DNA from: Methanobacteriota archaeon
GTDB taxonomy: Archaea > JAADCQ01 > Methanopyri > Methanopyrales > Methanopyraceae
Assembly: GCA_027064425.1 (NCBI GenBank)
Contig: JAMOPO010000052.1
Location: forward strand, 32,001-96,000
Direction: 5' to 3'
Length of the DNA stretch: 64,000 nucleotides
Shown piece by piece: positions 27,630 to 40,010 of the stretch. The position numbers and the translations under genes are program-made. The first letter of the stretch is position 1. Each line of letters starts with the position of its first letter. The notes under the pieces are model-generated. The model was not told the DNA's origin, did not search any database, and worked only from the letters and a program-made list of their open reading frames with translations.

Positions 27630-28019
27630 TTGCGGGCCTACGTCCTAGACACCTCCGCCTTCATCAAGGGTGCCGTCCCGCACCGAGGGCGGCTCTACAC
27701 CGTGCCCGAAGTCGTCGACGAGCTGCGCGACCCGCTCTCCCGAGCCCGGTACGAGTCCTCCGACGTCCGGGTCCGCGAGCCCGCCGAGTGGGCCGTCAAC
27801 CGAGCCCGGAGACGCGCCCAAGTCACCGGCGACGCGGACCGCCTGTCCACCACGGACCTAAAGGTCGTTGCGCTGGCCGTCGAGCTGCACTCCGAGGGGA
27901 AGAAAGTAACCGTGGTCAGCTCCGACTACGCGGTACAGAACGTCGCGAAGTCCCTGGGAATCGACGTCTTCGGCCCCGTGCACGGCGAGATAAGGGAGGT
28001 GAGGGGTCCAAGCCGATGA
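27630..28019 (+). CDS. NOB1-like PIN-domain nuclease
   Basis: YVLDTSAFI, VVDEL, LSTTDLKVVALA, SSDYAVQNVA; TTG 27630 after GGGGTG. Confidence 0.88.
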   Translation: MRAYVLDTSAFIKGAVPHRGRLYTVPEVVDELRDPLSRARYESSDVRVREPAEWAVNRARRRAQVTGDADRLSTTDLKVVALAVELHSEGKKVTVVSSDYAVQNVAKSLGIDVFGPVHGEIREVRGPSR

Positions 28020-28873
28020 GCACCGTCGGCATCACCACCACCGTCACCGTGGCCGGCCTCACCGGGGTCAAGCGGGTCACCGCCCGCGTGGACACCGGCG
28101 CCCGCTACGACTCGCTGGACTACGCCCTCGCCTCCAAGATCGGCGCCGGCCCCATCGTCGACGTCAAGAAGGTCCGCTCCGCCACCGCCTCCCGACTCAA
28201 GGCCGAGCGCCGCCCCGTCGTCCCCATAACCGTCCGACTGGGCGACAAGGTCGTGCACACCCACGCCACCCTCGCAGACCGCCGCAAGATGAGGTACCCC
28301 CTGATCATCGGGCGGGAGACCCTCCGCCGAGCCGGCGTCCTCATCGATCCGAGCCTCGAGTCGGACGGGAAGGACGAGGAGAAGGAGACCGGGCGGCAGG
28401 CGGCCAGCATGCTCAAGCTGCACGCCAAGCTGCGCCGCGTGGTGCCGGAGGAGCGCGCCATCACCCCCGCCATCCTGGCCCTTCAGCACGGTGGGGCCTG
28501 GTCTTACCGGGACGAGGACGTCTCCTCCGTGGCCGTTCCCGTCCGAGAGGAGGAAGACGGGGCCATTCTCGAGCGGCTGTACCTGCTGGTTAACCCTCGG
28601 GTCGAGCGCTCCGAGGACCGCATCATCCGGCTGGAGAAGTGCGGAGAGAAGGAGCTCCGCAGGGTGGCCGAGCGCCCGCGGGTCCTCGAAGTCAGCCACG
28701 AGGGAGGGGCCACGATCCTCGTCGACCCCCGCCGCCGCGTCGTCGAGGTCTCCCGGCTCGAGCCCGGCAAAATCACCTTCCGGGGGACCGCCGCGGCCAA
28801 CGTCCACCACGAGCTCTCCCACCTAACCGAGGAGGAGTCCGGCCCCACCATCCTGGACTTCGAGGTGGAGTAG
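28016..28873 (+). CDS. Retropepsin-like (RimK-associated) protease domain fused to peptide-deformylase-like domain
   Basis: RVDTGA..SLD, LIIGRETL; then LVNP, EKC, HELSH; ATG 28016. Confidence 0.72.
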   Translation: MSTVGITTTVTVAGLTGVKRVTARVDTGARYDSLDYALASKIGAGPIVDVKKVRSATASRLKAERRPVVPITVRLGDKVVHTHATLADRRKMRYPLIIGRETLRRAGVLIDPSLESDGKDEEKETGRQAASMLKLHAKLRRVVPEERAITPAILALQHGGAWSYRDEDVSSVAVPVREEEDGAILERLYLLVNPRVERSEDRIIRLEKCGEKELRRVAERPRVLEVSHEGGATILVDPRRRVVEVSRLEPGKITFRGTAAANVHHELSHLTEEESGPTILDFEVE

Positions 28874-30964: not shown

Positions 30965-32080
30965 CTAAAGCCTGGTCCGGATGACCGTGTGGCCCCAGAT
31001 CGCGGCGGACAGGATCGTGAACGTGGCCAGCGCGAACGAGTTCATCGCCCGTGAGAACAGGAAGGCACCGATCAGCGACTGGACGGCGAAGGCGATCAGG
31101 CACCCGAACAGCATAGCCTCCCGGGCCACGATCCGGGAGGAGAACTCACACTGATGCATCTTGATGTATCGGGCCAGGCACCGGGAGCCCACGTACAGCG
31201 TGAGCCCCACCCACAGCGACAGCAGGAGCGAGCCGATGTACCCGAAGTCGAAGGCCCAGACGAAGACGCCGGGGAGCATGTAGTCGAGCAGGTCCTTTCG
31301 CGTGACCAGCGCGCCGTGCAGGGTGGGCACGTCCAGGTTGAACATGACCAGGTATCCCACGGGCAGCGTCACGAACCCGTCACCGAACCCGCGCCAGTGG
31401 TAACCTGCCGGGAGCGGCTTCGTCGAGTGCCCGATCAGGTGCGCGTTCTTCAGGATGAGGTCGAGGCCCGGGACCGTGTACTCGGCGAAGCGCTGGACTC
31501 GGACGACCGGGCTGAGCACGGGCTTGTTCAGCGCGCGGGCCAGTGCCTCCATCATCGCCACGAACCCGACCGCGATCACGGACACCGCGGCGATGGTCCG
31601 ACGGCTCATCCTAGCCGCGCGCATGGCGAGCGCTCCAACCCGCGTCTCCCCCTCCAGGTACCTGGCGATCAGGTACTCCGTGCCGACCCAGCAGAGGAAC
31701 CAGGAGAGCAGGTAGTCACGATGCATTAGCCCGCCAACCATGCCGACGTAAAGCCAGAGCAGGTTCAGCACCGGCCGGGTCCGGCGCGCGGCCGAGATGC
31801 CCCGACTCTCTAGGATTCCCACGAGGTACCGCGCCGAGGCCCAGGCGGCCAGCGTCAGCGGTCCGAAAGGATGGGTGAACTCGTGCCGAGGCATGGGCAG
31901 GAACAGGGACAGCACGTCCACGGAGAACAGCAGGGCCATGACCACCAGGGTGAAGATTGACAGCGAGAGCACGCGCTGGATGGTCACCGTGGAGTAGGCC
32001 AGCGTGAGTGGGATCAGAGTGTGGGTCATGATGACGAAGTCCAGCAGCGCCTCTCCGGTGTTGTGCGGTACCAGGTACAA
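30965..32080 (-). CDS. Polytopic membrane protein, Wzy/O-antigen-ligase(GT-C)-like topology
   Basis: About 9-10 hydrophobic segments with a large loop before DFGYIG; last gene of the pseudomurein operon. CDS is solid, function is inferred. Confidence 0.72.
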   Translation of the reverse strand: MYLVPHNTGEALLDFVIMTHTLIPLTLAYSTVTIQRVLSLSIFTLVVMALLFSVDVLSLFLPMPRHEFTHPFGPLTLAAWASARYLVGILESRGISAARRTRPVLNLLWLYVGMVGGLMHRDYLLSWFLCWVGTEYLIARYLEGETRVGALAMRAARMSRRTIAAVSVIAVGFVAMMEALARALNKPVLSPVVRVQRFAEYTVPGLDLILKNAHLIGHSTKPLPAGYHWRGFGDGFVTLPVGYLVMFNLDVPTLHGALVTRKDLLDYMLPGVFVWAFDFGYIGSLLLSLWVGLTLYVGSRCLARYIKMHQCEFSSRIVAREAMLFGCLIAFAVQSLIGAFLFSRAMNSFALATFTILSAAIWGHTVIRTRL

Positions 32081-32081
32081 G

Positions 32082-33344
32082 TTACCACCCTCTGGTCCGC
32101 CGGTGTAGCAGCTCTCTGACGCATCCGAGCACGATCAGGGTGACGCCCAGGGCCGATCCCAGCAGGCCGAGCGCGTGCAGCACCTCGGACGGAACGGGGG
32201 TCTTCAGCGGGCGCTTCTTGTACCCGGGAGGCAGCGGCCGCATGTACACCGTGACCAGGTTAGCCTTCGGTTCCACCTTGATGTCGCTGGGCAGCACGTA
32301 GTCGTAGCCCAGCAGGGTGTTGTTGTCGATCGCGTTGTCAATGGCCCGGGCGATGTGCGTTGGGTCCCGCTTCCCGCGCTGGATCAGCGACTGCACGATC
32401 TCCACGATGGTCGCCTTGTCGTAGGCGCTCCTGACCCCGTACACGCGCACCACCGGCTGGTTCTTACGCACGGTGATCAGGTCGCGCGCCACCTGCCAGG
32501 CGTACTCCGTCTTCAAGCTGGAACCGCACACCGGGCACCGGGTGTACCTGCCCGCCGCCGGGTACGGCGCGCTCCAGCCGCACTTGGGGCACACCTTCCG
32601 GTAAGGAGCGTCCAGCGGAAACCCGCGCTCGTTGAGCCGAGCGGGCACGAACGTGTCGCCGGTGGAGAGTCCCGCGGTGATGTTCACGGCGCCGCCACCG
32701 TACTTCTCGCCCGACTTCCTGGCCACGTAACCCATGACCCGGGTGAGCACCTCCGTCGCGGGCAGCCCGTCCCGGATCATTCGGCCCGCCATGATCGCCG
32801 CCTCGACGCGAACCTTGGTCGCCGTACCGTACAGCGGGTTACCCGGCGTGTTACGCAGGTGGATGACCGCGCACTTGACGTTGGGCGGGATCTTGACGAT
32901 GTTCGGGCCCGCGCTGCTGTGGTACTGCTTGATGATGATCTTGTTCCCCTTCACGATGACCACGGTGATGTCGTAGCTACCGCCCACCACGATGCCCCGA
33001 CGCGGGCCGCCCACCAGCAGTCGGTCCGTAGGCGACTTCTCGACACCGGCCCGGACGGCCTCCTCCAGCGGCATGCCCAGCTCCAGGCGACGGATGCACG
33101 CCAGGATCGCCTCCAGCCGCGCGGTACCCTTACCTAGACCACCCGCCAGCACGGCCACGTGCAGCTTTTTGGAGACCAGGAACGTGGACTGGAACATGTT
33201 GGGAGCGAACGACATCGAGCCGGCGGCTGCGCCGTTCGGGTCCTTGCCCGTGGGATCCGTGATGACGATCATGTTGAACGTGGCCGAGGAGGCCGAGGGG
33301 AGGAGCAGCAGGGCCAGCGCGAGTATCGCCGCCCACCGGATGAT
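32082..33344 (-). CDS. Secreted, C-terminally anchored Ntn-hydrolase-like protein with Zn ribbon
   Basis: In-frame signal peptide IRWAAILALALLLLPSASSA precedes TFNMIVITDPTG; CPKC..CPVC; C-terminal TM; probable ATC start at 33344 (first ATG 33272). Confidence 0.75.
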   Translation of the reverse strand: MIRWAAILALALLLLPSASSATFNMIVITDPTGKDPNGAAAGSMSFAPNMFQSTFLVSKKLHVAVLAGGLGKGTARLEAILACIRRLELGMPLEEAVRAGVEKSPTDRLLVGGPRRGIVVGGSYDITVVIVKGNKIIIKQYHSSAGPNIVKIPPNVKCAVIHLRNTPGNPLYGTATKVRVEAAIMAGRMIRDGLPATEVLTRVMGYVARKSGEKYGGGAVNITAGLSTGDTFVPARLNERGFPLDAPYRKVCPKCGWSAPYPAAGRYTRCPVCGSSLKTEYAWQVARDLITVRKNQPVVRVYGVRSAYDKATIVEIVQSLIQRGKRDPTHIARAIDNAIDNNTLLGYDYVLPSDIKVEPKANLVTVYMRPLPPGYKKRPLKTPVPSEVLHALGLLGSALGVTLIVLGCVRELLHRRTRGW

Positions 33345-33358
33345 CTTCCGACGCCCCC

Positions 33359-33775
33359 TTACCTCGGCAGCCCGTAGTCCTCCGTCACCCTCACGACCAC
33401 GACGCCTGACCGCTTGATCGTGATCTGGACCGACTTGACGGGCTTAATTTTGGTACCGGGGATAACGCTGCGCATGGCGTAGATGCGCGCCCTCCTGACC
33501 GCCTCCTGCAGCGGGATTCGCTTGCCGTCCGGGGTGATCAGCACCCCGTTCTTGATCGTGGCACCCGGCCTCAGTCCCGCCGCCATCACGTTGCTCCTGA
33601 CCACCTCCTCAGGCAGGAAGTCGCACCCTACCACGTCCACACCCACGATCTTGACCCCTCCCTGCTTGGGCAGCGGGCGGCTCGCCCAGGCCGTGTACTC
33701 GGCCAGCCTCCCCAGGGTGAGCAGCAGCGCTCCCAGCAGCATGATGGCGAGGTTACGCCTCGACACCCGGATCAT
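33359..33775 (-). CDS. Bitopic FtsQ-type POTRA-domain protein
   Basis: N-terminal TM, then KIVGVDVVGCDFLPEEVV..VKSVQITIKRSGVVVVRVTE; ATG 33775. Confidence 0.7.
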   Translation of the reverse strand: MIRVSRRNLAIMLLGALLLTLGRLAEYTAWASRPLPKQGGVKIVGVDVVGCDFLPEEVVRSNVMAAGLRPGATIKNGVLITPDGKRIPLQEAVRRARIYAMRSVIPGTKIKPVKSVQITIKRSGVVVVRVTEDYGLPR

Positions 33776-35231
33776 CCTCGCCCACCACCCCCATCTCCCG
33801 GAGGATCTTCCGGGCCGGCTCCATGCCCTGCGCCCCGCCCAGCAGCACCACCGTGTCCTCATCACTGAGCTCCAGCGCGCGCTCCAGCGCGTCCTCAAGC
33901 CGGTTGAAGTGCTCCCACTCCACCCCACCGCGCCTCAGCTCCTCCAGGAAGACCTCCCGCTCCTCGTCCCGAACGACGTTCGCCTCGTCCACCAGACCCT
34001 CCGAGTCCGTGGCCAAAATCCGCACCTCCACGCCCTCCCGCTCCAGCTCTCGAGCCCCCTTCACCAACGCCCTCGCGATCTCCCGGTTGATCTCCGTCCC
34101 GCGCGACCCCCGGATGGCGAAGACGATCACGGCCCGATCCTTGCCCAGCCTCCGCAGGGCCCGCACCGTCGCGAGGACACCGTCCGGATTGTGGCAGAAG
34201 TCGTCCACGATCAGCGGATCCTCCGACAGCCGCTCGAACCGGCGCTTGAGCGGGCGGTACGTGCGCAGCCCCTCCGCGATGTCCTCAGCGTCCACGCCCA
34301 GGGCGTGAGCGGCCGCGGTCGCGGCGAGCGCGTTGTACAGGAAATGGTCCACCGGGAGCGGGAACTCGCGGACGGGGATCAACGGTTCCCCTTCCAGCAG
34401 AATCCACTCCTCCCCGTCCACCTCACCGATCCGGGCGACGCCCTCCTCCCACCCGTACCACACTACCTCCGGCGCGAGCGACTCCATCTCCGCCACGCGC
34501 TCGTCGTCCGCGTTCAGCACCGCGACCCCGTCCTCCAGCGCCCTGACAACCCCCGAAACCGCCTCCGCCATCTCGTCCAGCGAGGAGACCAGGTTCGTGT
34601 GATCCACTCCCACGTTCGTTACCACGGCAACCTCACAGTCCAGGGCACGAGCCATCCGGTACGCGTGGTCCTCCATAACCCGGCCGGTCGGCAGGCCCTG
34701 AACCTCCGAGACCTCTACGCACAGGAAATCCTCCGGCCGGGCCTCCCGGATCTCCATAGCCACGACGGGGTCAATCAGCGTGTTCTTCTCGGACCGGAAG
34801 TCAGTGTTGCAGTACACGTCCCGGCCCGCCGACCTCAGGATGTGAGCGAGCAGGTGGTTGGTGGTGGACTTGCCGTTGGTGCCCGTGACGCACGCGGTGA
34901 CGGCGTCGGGCGCGTACTCCCTTTTCGCCAGCTTCAGCGCGTACTCGTTGGCCCGGTCCACCTCCGTCAGGATGAGGGGGAGACCGCGGCGCTCGCACTC
35001 TTCCTCCAGCCTGCCCCGCGGCTCCTCCGTGATCAGGCACGCCACACCGCGCTCATCCGCCAGCTCGGCCCCACGCTCATCGAGCCACCACCTGACCACC
35101 ACGTCCCCCTCGCTCGCCCGCCCGAGCGTGGAGAACCAGCCCCGAACTCTTCCGTCGGGGTCCCCGACGACCAGCTCCCCGTCCACCCTTTCAGCCAGCT
35201 CGCCCACGGTGGTTCTCAGCAGCGCGATCAC
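33753..35231 (-). CDS. Mur-ligase family peptide ligase (pseudomurein)
   Basis: VTGTNGKSTT, VVTNVGVDH, VLNADD, YNALAA, RRFE, DDFCHNPDG; GTG 35231. Confidence 0.92.
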   Translation of the reverse strand: MIALLRTTVGELAERVDGELVVGDPDGRVRGWFSTLGRASEGDVVVRWWLDERGAELADERGVACLITEEPRGRLEEECERRGLPLILTEVDRANEYALKLAKREYAPDAVTACVTGTNGKSTTNHLLAHILRSAGRDVYCNTDFRSEKNTLIDPVVAMEIREARPEDFLCVEVSEVQGLPTGRVMEDHAYRMARALDCEVAVVTNVGVDHTNLVSSLDEMAEAVSGVVRALEDGVAVLNADDERVAEMESLAPEVVWYGWEEGVARIGEVDGEEWILLEGEPLIPVREFPLPVDHFLYNALAATAAAHALGVDAEDIAEGLRTYRPLKRRFERLSEDPLIVDDFCHNPDGVLATVRALRRLGKDRAVIVFAIRGSRGTEINREIARALVKGARELEREGVEVRILATDSEGLVDEANVVRDEEREVFLEELRRGGVEWEHFNRLEDALERALELSDEDTVVLLGGAQGMEPARKILREMGVVGEDDPGVEA

Positions 35232-36304
35232 CCCGCGAGCCAGAGGGCGATGCCTGCGAGGAAGGCGCCGGCCATCCAGTGCAGGGCCACCACGATCGGC
35301 TCGGGCAAATCGTACTTGTACTGGAGGTGATGATGCAGGGGCTCGACCGCGAGCCGGATCACGCCGGCGCGGTGGAGCAGGCTGATGATCGTGGACCCCA
35401 CGGGCACGCCGAGGGCGATGACGGCGGGCACCTCGATCTTGTAGTACAGCGCGCCGGCGGCGTACGCGGCCCCCAGGAAGCAGCTCCCGGTGTCGCCCAT
35501 GAAGATCTTGGCCGGGTACCTGTTGTGGAACAGGAAGCCGAGCGAGGCTCCGGCGAGCGAGGCGAAGAACGCGGCGCCCGGGAGCTGATTGTGGGCCAGG
35601 CACACGCCCGAGCACGCCAGAGAGGCCAGAAACAGGAGGCCCGCGGCCAGCCCGTCCATGCCGTCGATAAGGTTCACCGCGTTGGTCGCGCCCACGACGC
35701 CGAAGAGAGCCAGCGGGTAGAACAGCCAGGAAAGGTCGATCGTCCCTAAGTGCGGGAACCACAGCCAGGTGGCGGGCACGATAGGGAGAACGAAGAGCGC
35801 GGCTCCGGCCTGAAGCAGCAGCTTCTCCCGCTCGCTCAGCTCCTTCTTGATCGGCACCTCGCCCACGATCTCGATCTTGTCCGGCTCCTCCCTGAGCAGG
35901 CGCTTCAGGTCCCGCTTGGCCTTCTTCGTCGCCACCCGGGCCTCCTCACCGGGCTGGAGCACGAGCCGGCCGATCCTGATCGGCTCGTTGGAGACGTTCT
36001 TAACCACCTTCTGGTACTCCTCCACCTGCAGCCCGAGCAGGTCGTCCACCACTCCCAGCACCATCATGGGGAGTGCTGAGGCCAGGGGTGGCAGGGCCTG
36101 GATCGACACGAGGAGCGGTCCGGCGGCCGTGCCCAGGACGATCCCGAAACCGCCCATGATCGGTGTACCGGCCTTGTGAGAGTGCTCCGTGACGATCGGC
36201 CTGTCCACCACCCGGGCCTCCTTCATGTACCGCCGGAGGAGCCTGACGACAGCCCACGACGTCATCGTTGAGACGGCGAACGTCTCAACGATCAACCCGG
36301 TCAT
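35228..36304 (-). CDS. MraY-like polyprenyl-phosphate transferase
   Basis: HKAGTPIMGG, GVVDD, NAVNLIDGMDGL, IFMGDTGS, EPLHHH. Confidence 0.92.
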   Translation of the reverse strand: MTGLIVETFAVSTMTSWAVVRLLRRYMKEARVVDRPIVTEHSHKAGTPIMGGFGIVLGTAAGPLLVSIQALPPLASALPMMVLGVVDDLLGLQVEEYQKVVKNVSNEPIRIGRLVLQPGEEARVATKKAKRDLKRLLREEPDKIEIVGEVPIKKELSEREKLLLQAGAALFVLPIVPATWLWFPHLGTIDLSWLFYPLALFGVVGATNAVNLIDGMDGLAAGLLFLASLACSGVCLAHNQLPGAAFFASLAGASLGFLFHNRYPAKIFMGDTGSCFLGAAYAAGALYYKIEVPAVIALGVPVGSTIISLLHRAGVIRLAVEPLHHHLQYKYDLPEPIVVALHWMAGAFLAGIALWLAG

Positions 36305-36310
36305 CCCCGC

Positions 36311-37450
36311 TCAGAGGAACCTGCTAGCCTCCCTGAGCCGCAGCTCGAACTCCTTCTCGGCCAGCTTCAGGTTGGCTCCTGCCGCCTTGAACGCCGACCG
36401 CAGCCTCTCGAACGCTTCTTTAAACGATTCCCCTCTCACCGCGATCCGGCCGGCCACGTCCACTCTACCGTAGTACTCGTAAAACACGTGGTACACTCCT
36501 CCGTCGAACATCTCCCGCAGGGGCTCCCGCCGGGAGGCGTTCCACACCGGGCACTCGATCGCGTGCCAGACCTTCCTGACCCGGGGCGGCCTCCAGCGAT
36601 CCACGACCATGTCTACGAGCTCCCGCAGCGGCCAGATCCCGGAGCACCCGGAGGTCATGTACCGCGTACCGCTGGGCCGCGGGTTGAACTCCAGGAACCA
36701 GAACTCGTCCTCCCGGACCACCACGTCGAAGTCGATCGTGCCCTCCAGCCCCAGCCGCTTGACGAGCTTGACCGCGCAGCGCTTGATGCCACGCTCCACC
36801 GACTCGTCCAGCGGGGCGGGGGCCATCCTCATTCGATCGATGGGGTGGTCGTCGTCCAGCGTCGACCCCTTGAACACGGGAACGAGCGGGACGACCTCCC
36901 CGTTCCAGGATAGGACCTCGATCGACACCTCCGCCCCCTCGATGAACTCCTCCACCAGCCGCCTACCGTGAACCCTGGGCGCCGACCGCTCGTAAACGTC
37001 CACGTTAATACCGGCCTGCGACCGCGGGTCCTTCACGACGAGGGGCGGGCGCATCCGGGGCCGGTCGTCCTCCACCACCTCCCACTCGGGCGTCGGGATG
37101 TTCAGCTCCTCGAACGCCCGCTTCGCCTCGATCTTGTTCACACCGGTCTGAACGCCTCTCGGCCCCGAGGCCGCGACGGGGATTCCCTCCTCCTCCAACA
37201 TCTCCTTCATCTCCGCCACCTCGGGGAGCGGATCGTCCACGCCGATGAGCGGGACCACCCCGTCCACGCCCCGCTCGAGCGCGATCCGCGCCGGGTGAGC
37301 CATCCCGCGGGGCACGAAGTGAACCTCGTCCGCCAGGTCCCAGTCCCTGCTCTCCGGGTTCGACTCGGTCAGGATCCGGTAGATCCCGGTGGAGGCCGCG
37401 TACTCCGCCACGTCCCGGAACAGCCGGGCGCCGACGAACAGGACCTTCAA
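36311..37450 (-). CDS. ATP-grasp ligase (pseudomurein cluster)
   Basis: NKIEAK..IPTP, VEEFIEGAEVS, FLEFNPRPSG. Confidence 0.88.
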   Translation of the reverse strand: MKVLFVGARLFRDVAEYAASTGIYRILTESNPESRDWDLADEVHFVPRGMAHPARIALERGVDGVVPLIGVDDPLPEVAEMKEMLEEEGIPVAASGPRGVQTGVNKIEAKRAFEELNIPTPEWEVVEDDRPRMRPPLVVKDPRSQAGINVDVYERSAPRVHGRRLVEEFIEGAEVSIEVLSWNGEVVPLVPVFKGSTLDDDHPIDRMRMAPAPLDESVERGIKRCAVKLVKRLGLEGTIDFDVVVREDEFWFLEFNPRPSGTRYMTSGCSGIWPLRELVDMVVDRWRPPRVRKVWHAIECPVWNASRREPLREMFDGGVYHVFYEYYGRVDVAGRIAVRGESFKEAFERLRSAFKAAGANLKLAEKEFELRLREASRFL

Positions 37451-38979
37451 CCCTCCTCCCCCAGCGTCTCTTCCAGCTCCCTCAGAATGTCCTCCTTGAA
37501 CTTCAGCGCCGCCTCGCCGAACAGCACGATCACCTCACACTCCGACTCCAGCGCCGACCTGAGACCGTCCAGAACCTGCTCCCTGGAGGCCCCCAGCGTC
37601 CCCCGCTTCTCGAAGCGCTCCGAGGCGCTCTCGGCCGCCACCACGTTGTCCGCCTCAACGTCATCGAGCACGCGGTAGCACGCGTACGAGGCCGCGATGA
37701 CCCGGTCCGAGAGCTTCGCCGCCCGCTCGAGGATCTCCCGGTCGCCCTCCGGCCCCAGCTCCGAGGCCACGGCGATGACCGCGCAGACGCGCCGGTCCTT
37801 GAACAGCTGCCGCAGGCAGCGCAGGGTCGCCTCCACTCCCGCCGGGTTGTGGCCGTAGTCGATGATCACCACGCGCTCGCCGTCGTCCCACACGGTCTCC
37901 AGCCGCCCTTCCACCCCCTCGAACGAGGAGAGCGCGTGCGCCACCTCCCCCGGGTCCAGGTCCAGGAACTCGATGCAGACGGCCGCGGCCGCCACGGCGT
38001 TGTACACGTTGTGAAGGCCCATCACGGGCAGGCTGACCTCGAACTCGCCCCCCGGGCAGGCCAGCGTGAACCCGTCCAGGGAGACGTCGGTGGCCAGGTA
38101 GTCCGGCGTCGGCGTCCTCAACCCGCACTCGCACCGGAAGTCGCCCACCCACGGGAGGATCTCCTCCACCTCCGCCCGCTCGCCGCACCAGCACTCCTTC
38201 TCCACGGTACCCACGGGCTCCGCCTCCACCCCGAAGTAGACGATGTCGCCGTCGAACCCGACCACGTCCGGCGCGCCCACGACCAGCGGGTCCTGAGCGT
38301 TCAGGACGGCCAGCTCCACCGAGTCGGGCTCAAGCAGCTCGATCTCGCACCGCGCGTACGTCTTGAAGTCGCCCGCCTTGTTCAGGTGATCGGGCGTGAT
38401 GTTCGTCAGGCAGACGCACTCCACCTCGGACCACTCGGCCGCCTCGAGGATCTCCCCGCGCTCACCGAACGTCGCGATCTCCAGCACGCTCACGTCGCCC
38501 GGCAGCCGAGCCTGCAGCGGAGGCAGGTACCCGACGTTCCCCTGCATGCCCGGCAGTCCGGGGCCCCGGGCCTCCAGCCCCAGCTCCCGGCACACGTGCC
38601 GGATCATCGCCACGGTCGTCGTCTTCCCGTTCGTGCCGCCCACGCCCACCACCGGCCGCGTGGGTGGGATCTTCTTGAGCACGTCCTCCACCTCACAGAC
38701 CCGGCACCCGTGCCGCTCGGCCATCCGGTACGGGGGAGCGCCCTCGTCCAGGCTGGGCGGGAGGACCACCGCGTCGGCCCGCTGGAACAGCTCCGGCGGG
38801 TGCCCGCCCAGAACGATCTCGATGTTCGCGTAGTCCAGCAGGGGCTCCAGCAGCTCGCACTCCTCCTCGTCCTTCACGTCCGAGGCGATCACGTGGTAGT
38901 CCCGCTCCGCGAGCACCCGGGCGACCAGGTTGCACACGGGCCCGCACACGCCGATGACCAGCACGGTGAACCCCTTCAC
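37447..38979 (-). CDS. Mur-ligase family peptide ligase with Cys4 insert
   Basis: GGTNGKTTT, LTNITPDHL, HNVYNAVAA, GVEGRLE, DYGHNPAG; CWCG..CECG. Confidence 0.92.
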   Translation of the reverse strand: MKGFTVLVIGVCGPVCNLVARVLAERDYHVIASDVKDEEECELLEPLLDYANIEIVLGGHPPELFQRADAVVLPPSLDEGAPPYRMAERHGCRVCEVEDVLKKIPPTRPVVGVGGTNGKTTTVAMIRHVCRELGLEARGPGLPGMQGNVGYLPPLQARLPGDVSVLEIATFGERGEILEAAEWSEVECVCLTNITPDHLNKAGDFKTYARCEIELLEPDSVELAVLNAQDPLVVGAPDVVGFDGDIVYFGVEAEPVGTVEKECWCGERAEVEEILPWVGDFRCECGLRTPTPDYLATDVSLDGFTLACPGGEFEVSLPVMGLHNVYNAVAAAAVCIEFLDLDPGEVAHALSSFEGVEGRLETVWDDGERVVIIDYGHNPAGVEATLRCLRQLFKDRRVCAVIAVASELGPEGDREILERAAKLSDRVIAASYACYRVLDDVEADNVVAAESASERFEKRGTLGASREQVLDGLRSALESECEVIVLFGEAALKFKEDILRELEETLGEEG

Positions 38980-38990
38980 GCGTATCCCCC

Positions 38991-40010
38991 TCAGACGCGC
39001 GTCCCCGGGATCTCCCGACCGTACTCGCGCAGCAGCTCGCGCATCAGCGAGCGCACGTCCTCCAGGAGCCTCCTGGCCGCCTCCTCATCCCTCTCGACGG
39101 CTAGGCGGGGTAGGACGTCGTACCCTAAATCGTCGACTCGGTCGTCGATCTCGGAGTACTCGGACAGGACCGCGTGCAACTGCGCGAGCCGTTCCGTCCG
39201 CTCAACCCGGTTCAGCGTCCCGTGGACGTACGATCTCAGCGCGCTCTCAAGGTACATGAGCAGCCGGTACGTGAGGTCGCGGACGACGTCGCCCTCGTCC
39301 CGCGGTCCCTCCGGCACCCCGCCCCGGAACACCCGGCTCAGCTCCAGCCCCAGCCTCTCCTCCACCTCCCCCGCGTCCCACCTCGGGGTCTCCGTCTCGA
39401 CCAGGTACTCCAGGCACTCCCGTGGAGACGCCACCCGCTCCACCATGAGCGAGCAGGCCCGGCCCGTGAGCGGGTTGTATCCCACCCGCTCGATGAACCG
39501 GTGCACTCCGTAGGGCCGGATGGGGCACGTGTAGTCCTCGTCGAACCATCCGCATTCCGAGACGATCCGCCGCACGTCCTCCCACGTCCACCGGCGCAGC
39601 GCCGGGTACCGGACCATCGTCACGCCGGGGGGGTATGGGTGGGTCACCCGCCGCCCGTACTTGCCTCGCAGCTCGTGGCCCGTGAGGACCGTGAGCAGCC
39701 CCAGCTGCTTGGCGCGTAGGCAGGCGGCGGTCAGGACCGTCCTCGCGCACTTGGTGCAGATGGGTAGACCGCGCCGGAGGGCTCGGCGGAACCACTCTCG
39801 AAGCCGAACGCGGACGACCTCGTGGCGGAGGCCCAGCCGCTCCGCGCACCTCCTGGCGTTCTCCAGGCACACCTCGTCCAGGAACTCGTGAACGACCGTG
39901 ACCGCCGCCTCCAGACGCCATCGTTCGGAGGCGTGGAGGGCGGTCGCCACGCTGTCCCGGCCGCCGGAGAGCGCCACGCAGGCGGGGTTGCTGGGGCTAG
40001 TCGTGCGCAT
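38991..40010 (-). CDS. PP-loop (adenine nucleotide alpha-hydrolase) protein
   Basis: ALSGGRDS, ICTKC, LTGHE, YTCP. Confidence 0.82.
   Translation of the reverse strand: MRTTSPSNPACVALSGGRDSVATALHASERWRLEAAVTVVHEFLDEVCLENARRCAERLGLRHEVVRVRLREWFRRALRRGLPICTKCARTVLTAACLRAKQLGLLTVLTGHELRGKYGRRVTHPYPPGVTMVRYPALRRWTWEDVRRIVSECGWFDEDYTCPIRPYGVHRFIERVGYNPLTGRACSLMVERVASPRECLEYLVETETPRWDAGEVEERLGLELSRVFRGGVPEGPRDEGDVVRDLTYRLLMYLESALRSYVHGTLNRVERTERLAQLHAVLSEYSEIDDRVDDLGYDVLPRLAVERDEEAARRLLEDVRSLMRELLREYGREIPGTRV

Follow-up and report, generated by a model that had tools for sequence, protein, structure and literature searches.

Which enzymes assemble pseudomurein once its building blocks have left the cytoplasm? 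We know of no enzyme, at any time since the polymer was described, to which its polymerisation or its cross-linking outside the cell has been assigned. The question is raised anew by a locus in a 64,000-nucleotide stretch of DNA (hereafter the window, whose positions are used throughout) from a Methanobacteriota archaeon of the Methanopyrus group (assembly GCA_027064425.1, contig JAMOPO010000052.1, forward-strand positions 32,001 to 96,000). Here, the minus-strand gene at 32082-33344 (stop codon at 32082-32084), which we call the target, stands at the end of a run of genes for pseudomurein precursor synthesis. A preliminary description, made from the letters of the window, had suggested that this gene encodes a secreted N-terminal nucleophile (Ntn) hydrolase-like protein and had put it forward as a pseudomurein transpeptidase. 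We find that the target belongs, as its orthologue in Methanopyrus, to the Mfer764 family (NCBIfam NF053642), itself uncharacterised, that its mature product is predicted, with good support, to have an Ntn fold with an invariant threonine in the place of the nucleophile, and that it can tentatively be read as a pseudomurein cross-linking transpeptidase, a reading whose chances we put a little short of even.

Translation of the minus-strand frame at 32082-33464 reads RGRRKIIRWAAILALALLLLPSASSA followed directly by TFNMIVITDPTGKDPNGAAAGSMS, with a signal-like stretch that ends in SASSA just before TFNMIVITDP. The preliminary description had proposed that cleavage of a signal-peptidase-type site after SASSA exposes a threonine (Thr1), and had asked whether Thr, Ser or Cys stands at this +1 position in all homologues. 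The site itself is confirmed by the translation, as are the other features that the description had placed at these coordinates, and the layout is conserved in 118 homologues; the +1 residue is more constant than the description had asked, being Thr wherever it could be read. The homologues come from a word-indexed search that returned 443 proteins at E values up to 0.001, with residue counts taken from the 120 listed, whose named members belong to Methanopyrus, Methanobacterium, Methanobrevibacter and their relatives. The same layout is found in 118 of these 120 proteins, the other two being gene calls from an internal Met. Across the 118 that include the N-terminus, +1 is Thr and +3 is Asn in every case, −1 is Ala in 117 and Pro in one, and −3 is Val in 85, Ser in 20 and Ala in 13, which, judged by its residues, is a signal-peptidase pattern. 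Similarly, all 80 loci fetched from species-representative genomes carry an ACN (Thr) codon at this place, with A-x-A before it and, further towards the N-terminus, a hydrophobic core and a basic n-region, and all 80 have a canonical ATG, GTG or TTG start at least 20 codons upstream of it; the signal peptide that precedes the threonine in relatives is 20-27 residues long. A lipobox was also considered at this site and rejected: position +2 is Cys in 99 of the 118 homologues but Met, Leu, Phe or Thr in 19, and the preceding residues are unfit.

An AlphaFold2 (AF2) model of the mature chain (m8adb26d7722c; 399 residues, Thr1 first, 72-sequence alignment) was obtained with a predicted local distance difference test score (pLDDT) of 88.7 and a predicted template modelling score (pTM) of 0.75. 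Over residues 1-200 it runs through four strands, two helices, six strands, two helices and one strand. The preliminary description had proposed modelling the mature chain in search of the alpha-beta-beta-alpha Ntn fold, and Ntn chains do indeed top all three structural searches made with this model. In Foldseek against the PDB, the best match was circularly permuted human Taspase-1 (E 1.2e-7 to 1.8e-6), followed by HslV, Anbu, 20S beta subunits, the GlmS glutaminase domain and PurO, with PP2C phosphatases interleaved in the list from E 6.7e-4. In VIA-align over 48,161 representative chains, matches included the DUF1028 protein 2imh_B (Z 15.5, root-mean-square deviation (rmsd) 3.0 over 184 residues), HslV (Z 13.5, rmsd 2.8 over 152, with model residues 1-201 on chain residues 1-171), Anbu, 20S beta subunits, the beta chains of NAAA, acid ceramidase and the penicillin/cephalosporin acylases, bile salt hydrolases, penicillin V acylases, TANGO2 and connectase. 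These Ntn alignments begin at model residue 1 and, on the other side, where the mature catalytic chain begins or a few residues away from there. When the best 999 Foldseek chains were re-aligned, all of the top 50 rows were Ntn proteins (Z 12.0-17.6) and all were aligned from model residue 1, Taspase-1 again being the best (Z 17.2-17.6, rmsd 3.5-4.2 over 216-227 residues). Because Ntn matches top the searches and their alignments start at the invariant Thr1, the predicted Ntn fold with this threonine at the nucleophile's place is well supported, on the basis of a model and of alignment ranges rather than of residue pairs.

Within the predicted catalytic domain, invariant in the 72-sequence alignment are T8-D9-P10...N16-G17, S22/S24, N28-F30, T33-F34, G47-G48, H141-L142/N144/G147-N148, R170-D171-G172, G191-E192/G195-G197/N200 and D209. 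In the model, G47-G48 precedes helix 1, H141/N144/G147-N148 precede helix 3 and G191-E192...G195-G197 follow helix 4; by analogy, these invariant segments would fall in the loops that line the active site in proteasome-type and asparaginase-type Ntn enzymes.

Past TFNMIVITDPTGKDPNGAAAGSMS, the frame translation continues through CPKC...CPVC, a Pro/Lys-rich stretch and a hydrophobic C-terminal helix to the closing RRTRGW. The preliminary description had noted a zinc ribbon in the first of these and a membrane anchor in the last. Two CxxC knuckles are present in the target, and their four cysteines are not universal: the 72 aligned members show the patterns CCCC (43), CCCD (16) and CDCD (13), with C231 and C249 invariant and positions 234 and 252 either Cys or Asp. 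Pfam zinc-ribbon matches, the only ones that the 72 members gave at E values up to 10, are all below cut-off (DZR, E 0.0084; 31 of 72 members), and Pfam run on the target protein alone returned a sub-threshold zinc-ribbon match only. The exchange of Cys for Asp would suit a metal site more than a disulfide. The anchor and the outward topology fit the sequence, and the C-terminal helix is conserved, with G372, G379 and R389 invariant in the 72-sequence alignment. The product is, with good support from such features, a predicted type-I membrane protein whose catalytic domain faces outward and whose anchor is C-terminal.

The family to which this protein belongs is confined to a narrow set of organisms. 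The target matches NF053642 at E 5.9e-164 over 391 of 393 profile positions (1-391). An exhaustive profile search of 1.84 billion cluster representatives matched 63 proteins, of which only two were full-length representatives, one of a Methanobacteriales-type and one of a Methanopyrus-type cluster; the others were fragments, bar one weak match to a repetitive protein of 1027 residues (E 4.2e-4), and no relatives beyond the Mfer764 family were found in this search. In a sample of 201 genomes, drawn from the phylum to which a Methanobacterium genome belongs, 199 have the family, nearly always once. Among 61 archaeal genomes from 42 families it is present in eight, which are exactly the eight with pMurE (E up to 1e-60), and none of 14 control genomes was matched. 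The family profile matches five of six Methanopyrus genomes; the sixth, which is 94% complete in 90 contigs, is also without pMurE. In its own genome (1.54 Mb, 57 contigs, 99.2% complete) the target is single-copy. It is 43-51% identical to its Methanobacteriales counterparts, the highest value among the proteins of the cluster by best tblastn segments (pMurE 24-47%, MraY 39-46%, Ddl-like 24-37%, Mfer763 32-40%). Two locus records labelled 'Methanomicrobiales archaeon' and 'Bacteroidaceae bacterium' (L007 and L070) carry Methanobacteriales-type upstream genes, namely pMurC or pMurE, MraY and Ddl-like, and look mis-binned or mislabelled. In the literature, Mfer764 appears as the 'Con Pro' of pseudomurein Gene Cluster 2 (Subedi et al. 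2021), corresponds by gene order to OG0001472 of Lupo et al. 2025, and is described in both as a conserved transmembrane or hypothetical protein without known domains. A literature search for a link between pseudomurein and an Ntn enzyme of the Mfer764 family found none, supplements and theses aside.

What might such an enzyme do at the surface of the cell? In the pathway papers, the cytoplasmic product is the stem peptide Glu-gamma-Ala-epsilon-Lys-Ala, whose Lys carries one more Glu in gamma linkage (Subedi 2021), and in the extracellular step the terminal residue of one stem is removed and Glu is linked to the Lys of its neighbour (Leahy 2010 Fig. S6 legend, Subedi 2021, Lupo 2025). The same papers state that cross-linking needs an extracellular acyl-transfer enzyme and name none as identified (Leahy 2010, Subedi 2021, Lupo 2025). 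By analogy, the extracellular step resembles D,D-transpeptidation more than it resembles gamma-glutamyl transfer of the gamma-glutamyl transpeptidase (GGT) type.

On the transpeptidase reading, the signal peptide would be cut at the conserved [V/S/A]-x-A immediately before Thr, either by signal peptidase or by an Ntn-type self-cleavage, and the cut would leave Thr1 at the N-terminus, its hydroxyl and its alpha-amine both free. The Pro-rich stalk and the C-terminal helix would tether the enzyme to the membrane, at the surface on which lipid-linked pseudomurein units appear. There, Thr1 would attack a donor stem peptide at the bond that holds its terminal residue, that residue would leave, and the acyl group would then move to the free amino group of a Glu on the neighbouring stem. 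Acyl transfer that is paid for by a peptide bond and passes through a Thr ester is Ntn chemistry. The target would act alongside a candidate glycan polymerase of WaaL/SEDS/Wzy type (SEDS, shape, elongation, division and sporulation), which is encoded one nucleotide downstream. As a predicted tethered, outward-facing Ntn enzyme whose gene is single-copy, co-inherited with those of the precursor enzymes and neighboured by a polymerase-like gene, the target is the best available candidate for the cross-linker. A wider proposal, which we offer more guardedly and consider possible rather than probable, is that the target represents a third mechanistic class of wall transpeptidase, namely a Thr1 Ntn enzyme that is armed by removal of its secretion signal and works with a WaaL/SEDS/Wzy-like polymerase and perhaps with Mfer763.

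The polymerase-like gene deserves description in its own right, since it enters both proposals. Its 371-residue polytopic product matched nothing in Pfam or NCBIfam, was placed among Wzy-type polymerase clusters in a language-model atlas (0.97), and has some UniRef homologues that are named 'oligosaccharide repeat unit polymerase'. Its AF2 model (pLDDT 84.8, pTM 0.85) matches the O-antigen ligase WaaL (7tpj_B) over nearly its full length, with Z 16.8 and rmsd 4.1 over 291 residues, and the SEDS polymerases RodA and FtsW with Z 12.6 and 12.2; rows below these drop to Z 9.5 and span only about 90 residues. RodA and FtsW also make up the top five in Foldseek, at weak E values of 0.013-0.045. A Z near 13 is by itself unsafe for helical membrane proteins; because of the full-length coverage and of the gap to unrelated rows, the WaaL/RodA/FtsW-like assignment is nevertheless a reasonable one for the predicted structure, and we regard the protein as a candidate pseudomurein glycan polymerase. 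According to Lupo 2025, the orthologous group of this neighbour is polytopic, of unknown function and specific to pseudomurein archaea, and adjoins the cluster in Methanopyrus sp. KOL6. In Methanopyrus, the target is also translationally coupled to a RodA/FtsW/WaaL-like gene. A predicted complex of the polymerase-like protein with the mature target scored 0.02 against a mark of 0.32, a result that carries no weight either way.

Several observations weigh against the transpeptidase reading or against a step that leads to it. At the level of sequence, none of the 72 members matches any Ntn Pfam model at E values up to 10; hhalign returned a probability of 0.4% against an archaeal Asparaginase_2 protein, and of 0.5% (local) or 0.1% (global) against 31 Thermococcales Asparaginase_2 homologues, which form a shallow profile because all are at least 79% identical to the query; and a profile search of PDB sequences gave one spurious match (GH95, E 1.1). 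The target has the predicted fold of the Ntn superfamily but belongs to no sequence-defined Ntn family. Its NF053642 score of 545.6 bits, or 545.5 in a second search, lies 14 under the curated cut-off of 560, which is an annotation threshold; its congeners score 571.1 and 562.1 (both pass), 538.5 and 530.6 bits, and the shortfall reflects divergence of the Methanopyrus lineage, not a different protein. The polymerase-like gene adjoins the family gene in only two of the 80 loci, both Methanopyrus-like, as in the window. In this genome, moreover, the signal peptide is without a canonical start, no ATG, GTG or TTG being found in the 54 open codons before Thr1, a point taken up below. Most Ntn enzymes are hydrolases, and the fold and the context fit a trimming or remodelling peptidase equally well. 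Finally, the candidates for cross-linking in print are of another kind, transglutaminase-core (PF01841) proteins. These were present in six of six Methanopyrus genomes, two to four in each, the window's own genome having three matches (contigs C45:2634-2951, C3:122311-122649 and C50:4936-5244). Such proteins were also found in three control archaea, which we take to lack pseudomurein. Transglutaminases are the sole enzymes that the pathway papers put forward, as guesses, and in Lupo 2025 a transglutaminase group is called 'the best candidate' for cross-linking. The Peptidase_C71 (PeiW type) profile matched nothing, controls included, and is hence uninformative.

The strongest competitor retains the outward-facing Ntn enzyme and changes its reaction. 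The protein would then be hydrolytic, as a stem-peptide carboxypeptidase or as an endopeptidase or amidase for growth, division or turnover, which we consider a serious possibility, though not a probable one. Its fold, invariant Thr1, topology and phyletic pattern suit hydrolysis as well as transfer, most of the structural matches are hydrolases (Taspase-1, HslV, the proteasome, acylases, ceramidase), and transglutaminase-core proteins able to cross-link are at hand in all six Methanopyrus genomes. However, the gene is single-copy, near-universal and the most conserved of its cluster, and it sits between the precursor enzymes and the polymerase-like gene, a position that in bacterial dcw clusters belongs to the transpeptidase and not to autolysins; neither consideration is decisive. 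It is rather improbable that the ectoenzyme acts on another envelope substrate, for example in the attachment or maturation of surface proteins or in the modification of a lipid-linked precursor. In its favour stand connectase, a methanogen Ntn enzyme that acts as a highly specific protein ligase, and the extra Cys-knuckle and C-terminal domains, which could bind a macromolecule. Against it, the gene is strictly co-occurrent and syntenic with pMurE and MraY, which indicates the wall polymer itself, and no candidate protein substrate is encoded nearby. It is very improbable that the protein is a PP2C-like metal phosphatase (acting, for instance, on the lipid carrier) or a non-catalytic scaffold of a wall synthase: PP2C chains, which form a similar four-layer sandwich, match at VIA-align Z 8.4-12.2 and at Foldseek E 6.7e-4 and weaker, and the invariant residues include many Asp, Asn and His that might serve as metal ligands, but the scores of Ntn chains are better than these (Z up to 17.6, Foldseek E 1.2e-7), their alignments begin at model residue 1 and those of PP2C chains at residues 11-14, a phosphatase would have no reason to keep Thr at a cleavage site in 118 of 118 homologues, and the 72 members matched no Pfam PP2C model.

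The transpeptidase reading can be set beside the Ntn systems and wall transpeptidases that are already known. Taspase-1 and the type-2 (plant-type) asparaginases (PF01112) are the best structural match, and in them, as is proposed for the target, a Thr nucleophile opens the catalytic chain. Unlike them, the target has neither an alpha-subunit-sized region nor alpha/beta self-cleavage, because its chain begins with a signal peptide; it is moreover predicted to be extracytoplasmic and membrane-anchored, it carries the extra Cys-knuckle and C-terminal domains, and none of the 72 members matches the PF01112 profile. The DUF1028 proteins (PF06267; PDB 2imh), to whose N-terminal start the preliminary description had aptly likened the target, have a single-chain Ntn fold as the target does in the model; the likeness holds at the level of structure only (Z 15.5, rmsd 3.0-3.1 over 184 residues), with no Pfam match among the 72 members, and DUF1028 is itself uncharacterised. 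HslV, the 20S beta subunits, Anbu and connectase have the same order of strands and helices and the same position of Thr1 as the target (in VIA-align and re-alignment, HslV Z 13.0-13.8, rmsd 2.8-3.0 over 152-155; connectase 6zw0 Z 9.0), and no sequence similarity to any of them was detected. These proteins are cytoplasmic, and it is propeptide autolysis or methionine aminopeptidase that uncovers their Thr1, whereas in the target a secretion signal would take that part. Connectase is described as a proteasome-like methanogen Ntn protein that is a pure transpeptidase and uses both the hydroxyl and the amine of Thr-1 (PMC7980362).

The class B penicillin-binding proteins (PBPs) with their RodA or FtsW partners are a functional analogue only. 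Like the predicted product of the target, they are ectoenzymes with a membrane anchor, and their genes keep company with those of MraY and the Mur ligases and lie beside one for a RodA/FtsW-like membrane protein; the chemistry proposed for the target would be theirs, with an acyl-enzyme, release of the terminal residue and transfer of the acyl group to an amine on the neighbouring stem. The two differ in that the target would use Thr1 of an Ntn fold and has a C-terminal anchor, whereas PBPs use a Ser of the penicillin-binding fold and have an N-terminal anchor; Pfam found no PBP or YkuD domain in the target or in the 72 members. GGT, with which the preliminary description had drawn its comparison, is an Ntn enzyme in which an amine takes up the acyl group of a Thr ester. 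The GGT model of Pfam (PF01019) was matched by none of the 72 members, and no GGT chain was among the rows listed in the three fold searches, a similarity ranked lower being possible. The pathway texts describe removal of a terminal residue and a Glu-Lys link and do not describe the extracellular step as gamma-glutamyl transfer (Subedi 2021, Lupo 2025, Leahy 2010). A secretion signal directly before the nucleophile, together with a C-terminal anchor and a cell-wall context, is a new variation on the Ntn theme. As a separate observation, a gene of MSTV1-like viruses of Methanobrevibacter smithii is annotated 'NTN-hydrolase' in a figure legend (PMC11375127).

The gene cluster around the target runs in the order pMurC, Ddl-like, MraY, pMurE, Mfer763 and Mfer764 (the target), flanked by GluRS, ArgRS and aRF1 on one side and by diphthine synthase and HemC on the other, in a window that is GC-rich throughout (0.64-0.71). 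The coordinates are collected in Table 1. The upstream synteny (pMurE or pMurC, MraY and Ddl-like) is kept wherever contigs reach, and an Mfer763-like open reading frame (ORF) stands directly upstream of the family gene in 77 of the 80 loci, the other three being cut by contig ends. The target shares with the other Mfer764 members its position after pMurE and Mfer763 and its restriction to pMurE-holding genomes, and differs from them in that its signal peptide is without a canonical start codon. The Mfer763 protein has a cleavable-looking A-x-A signal, and its stop lies 15 nucleotides before ATC 33344. Signals of a POTRA domain were seen in two of 30 members by Pfam (best E 0.039) and in atlas rows of 0.79 and 0.76, all below threshold; a POTRA-like Mfer763 with an FtsQ-like role is a weak lead that such signals may suggest.

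How, then, is the target translated in this genome? Position 33344 begins an ATC codon, with ATCs at 33344 and 33341 and an ATA further in, and the sole ATG, GTG or TTG of the open frame stands at 33272, an ATG that encodes residue 4 of the mature chain. In all four of the other gene-bearing Methanopyrus genomes a GTG stands before Thr1, at 17, 17, 24 and 23 codons. Where two relatives of 91% identity read GTG the window reads GTC, and its stretch from there to a conserved ATC is one base shorter than theirs; the ancestral-type start is therefore both mutated and out of frame. Contigs of four public runs from two studies cover 33265-33500 and are identical to the window at 33330-33365, one of the runs possibly being the genome's own sample; because contigs of two studies agree, the sequence of the start region appears real. 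One run contig carries an in-frame 3-nucleotide deletion at 33304, within the hydrophobic core, and the signal-peptide stretch appears, from its pattern of change, to behave like coding DNA. The purine-rich GAGGTAAGGGGG, a putative ribosome-binding site, ends 9 nucleotides before ATC 33344, and no such site precedes ATG 33272. The simplest reading of these data may be initiation, or re-initiation, at a near-cognate codon after TAA 33359.

The preliminary description had named three findings, any of which would overturn its proposal: a non-Ntn fold, an unconserved +1 residue, or a real N-terminus at Met 33272 with a cytoplasmic location. At the level of the family none of the three was borne out, since the modelled fold is Ntn, +1 is invariantly Thr, and in each of the 80 loci the signal peptide comes with a canonical start; the gene in the window is without one, and there the doubt it raised keeps some ground. 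Were ATG 33272 the start in this genome, the product would have no signal peptide and no Thr1, would be a cytoplasmic-side tail-anchored protein, and would be a dead, recently disabled gene product. Gene callers picked the internal Met in close relatives (P0001 and P0003; 396 residues), and the lack of ATG, GTG or TTG in the codons before Thr1 and the contigs from two studies that match the window there speak for the same start. We think it highly unlikely all the same. The 22 upstream codons still encode a textbook signal peptide, substitutions relative to relatives keep its signal character, the deletion in the population variant is in-frame, T-F-N is kept, the purine-rich site precedes ATC 33344 and not ATG 33272, and the genome, at 99.2% completeness, has no second copy. 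A −1 frameshift fusion of Mfer763 and the target was also considered and rejected: there is no slippery site at 33359-33370, the genes are separate in relatives and have their own starts, and the catalytic domain of a fusion would come to lie on the wrong face of the membrane.

Table 1. Positions in the window of the target gene's parts, of the neighbouring wall-cluster genes and of the putative ribosome-binding site.
Feature	Position	Strand	Basis or remark
Signal-peptide-like coding stretch KIIRWAAILALALLLLPSASSA (from AAG 33347)	33282..33344	-	Without in-frame ATG/GTG/TTG
ACG codon of Thr1, proposed N-terminal nucleophile	33279..33281	-	Invariance at +1; structural alignments start there
Predicted Ntn-fold catalytic domain, mature residues 1 to about 215	32637..33281	-	AF2 model, Foldseek, VIA-align
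Cys knuckle, zinc-ribbon-like, mature residues about 225-260 (C231, C234, C249, C252)	32502..32609	-	Sub-cut-off Pfam match
Predicted C-terminal alpha/beta ectodomain, mature residues 261-346	32244..32501	-	AF2 secondary structure, pLDDT
Pro/Lys-rich stalk, mature residues 347-364	32190..32243	-	Sequence; pLDDT 65-75
Predicted C-terminal transmembrane helix and basic tail, mature residues 365-399	32085..32189	-	Sequence, conservation, AF2 model
Purine-rich GAGGTAAGGGGG across the TAA stop of the Mfer763 gene	33354..33365	-	Putative ribosome-binding site
Mfer763-family gene: signal sequence and ectodomain of about 105 residues	33359..33775	-	NF053641, E 1e-45, 155.2 bits (cut-off 170)
pMurE	33753..35198	-	NF053648, E 1.1e-170, 568.4 bits (cut-off 600)
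MraY-type phospho-sugar-peptide transferase	35228..36304	-	NF053644, E 4.5e-131; Pfam Glycos_transf_4
Ddl-like ATP-grasp protein	36311..37450	-	NF053643, E 6.1e-97
pMurC	37447..38979	-	NF053645, E 1.2e-181, over cut-off
Polytopic membrane protein, 371 residues	30965..32080	-	TTG start 1 nucleotide past the target stop; WaaL/SEDS/Wzy-like AF2 model

Two further ORFs of the window may be mentioned. On the minus strand at 38991-40010, between GluRS and pMurC, a 339-residue ORF shows PP-loop ATPase matches to QueC (E 7.7e-4) and to a LarE-type profile (E 1.3e-5), weak and all far below cut-off; it may be a further member of the wall cluster. On the plus strand at 27788-28873, a 361-residue ORF has a weak match to retropepsin-like aspartic peptidases of RloA3 type over residues 139-185 (E 1.2e-10, far below cut-off).

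With these results a conserved hypothetical gene gains a defined hypothesis, that of an Ntn fold whose invariant threonine would be exposed by secretion, and its WaaL/RodA/FtsW-like neighbour provides a matching candidate for the glycan polymerase. If the transpeptidase reading is true, the pair would play in archaea the part of the bacterial SEDS-PBP synthase with an unrelated catalytic fold, and would be a case in which wall cross-linking has evolved convergently on a new fold. It would also explain why pseudomurein archaea are insensitive to beta-lactams. Such an enzyme would, in addition, be a methanogen-specific target in the rumen and gut, and would be relevant to the lowering of methane emissions.

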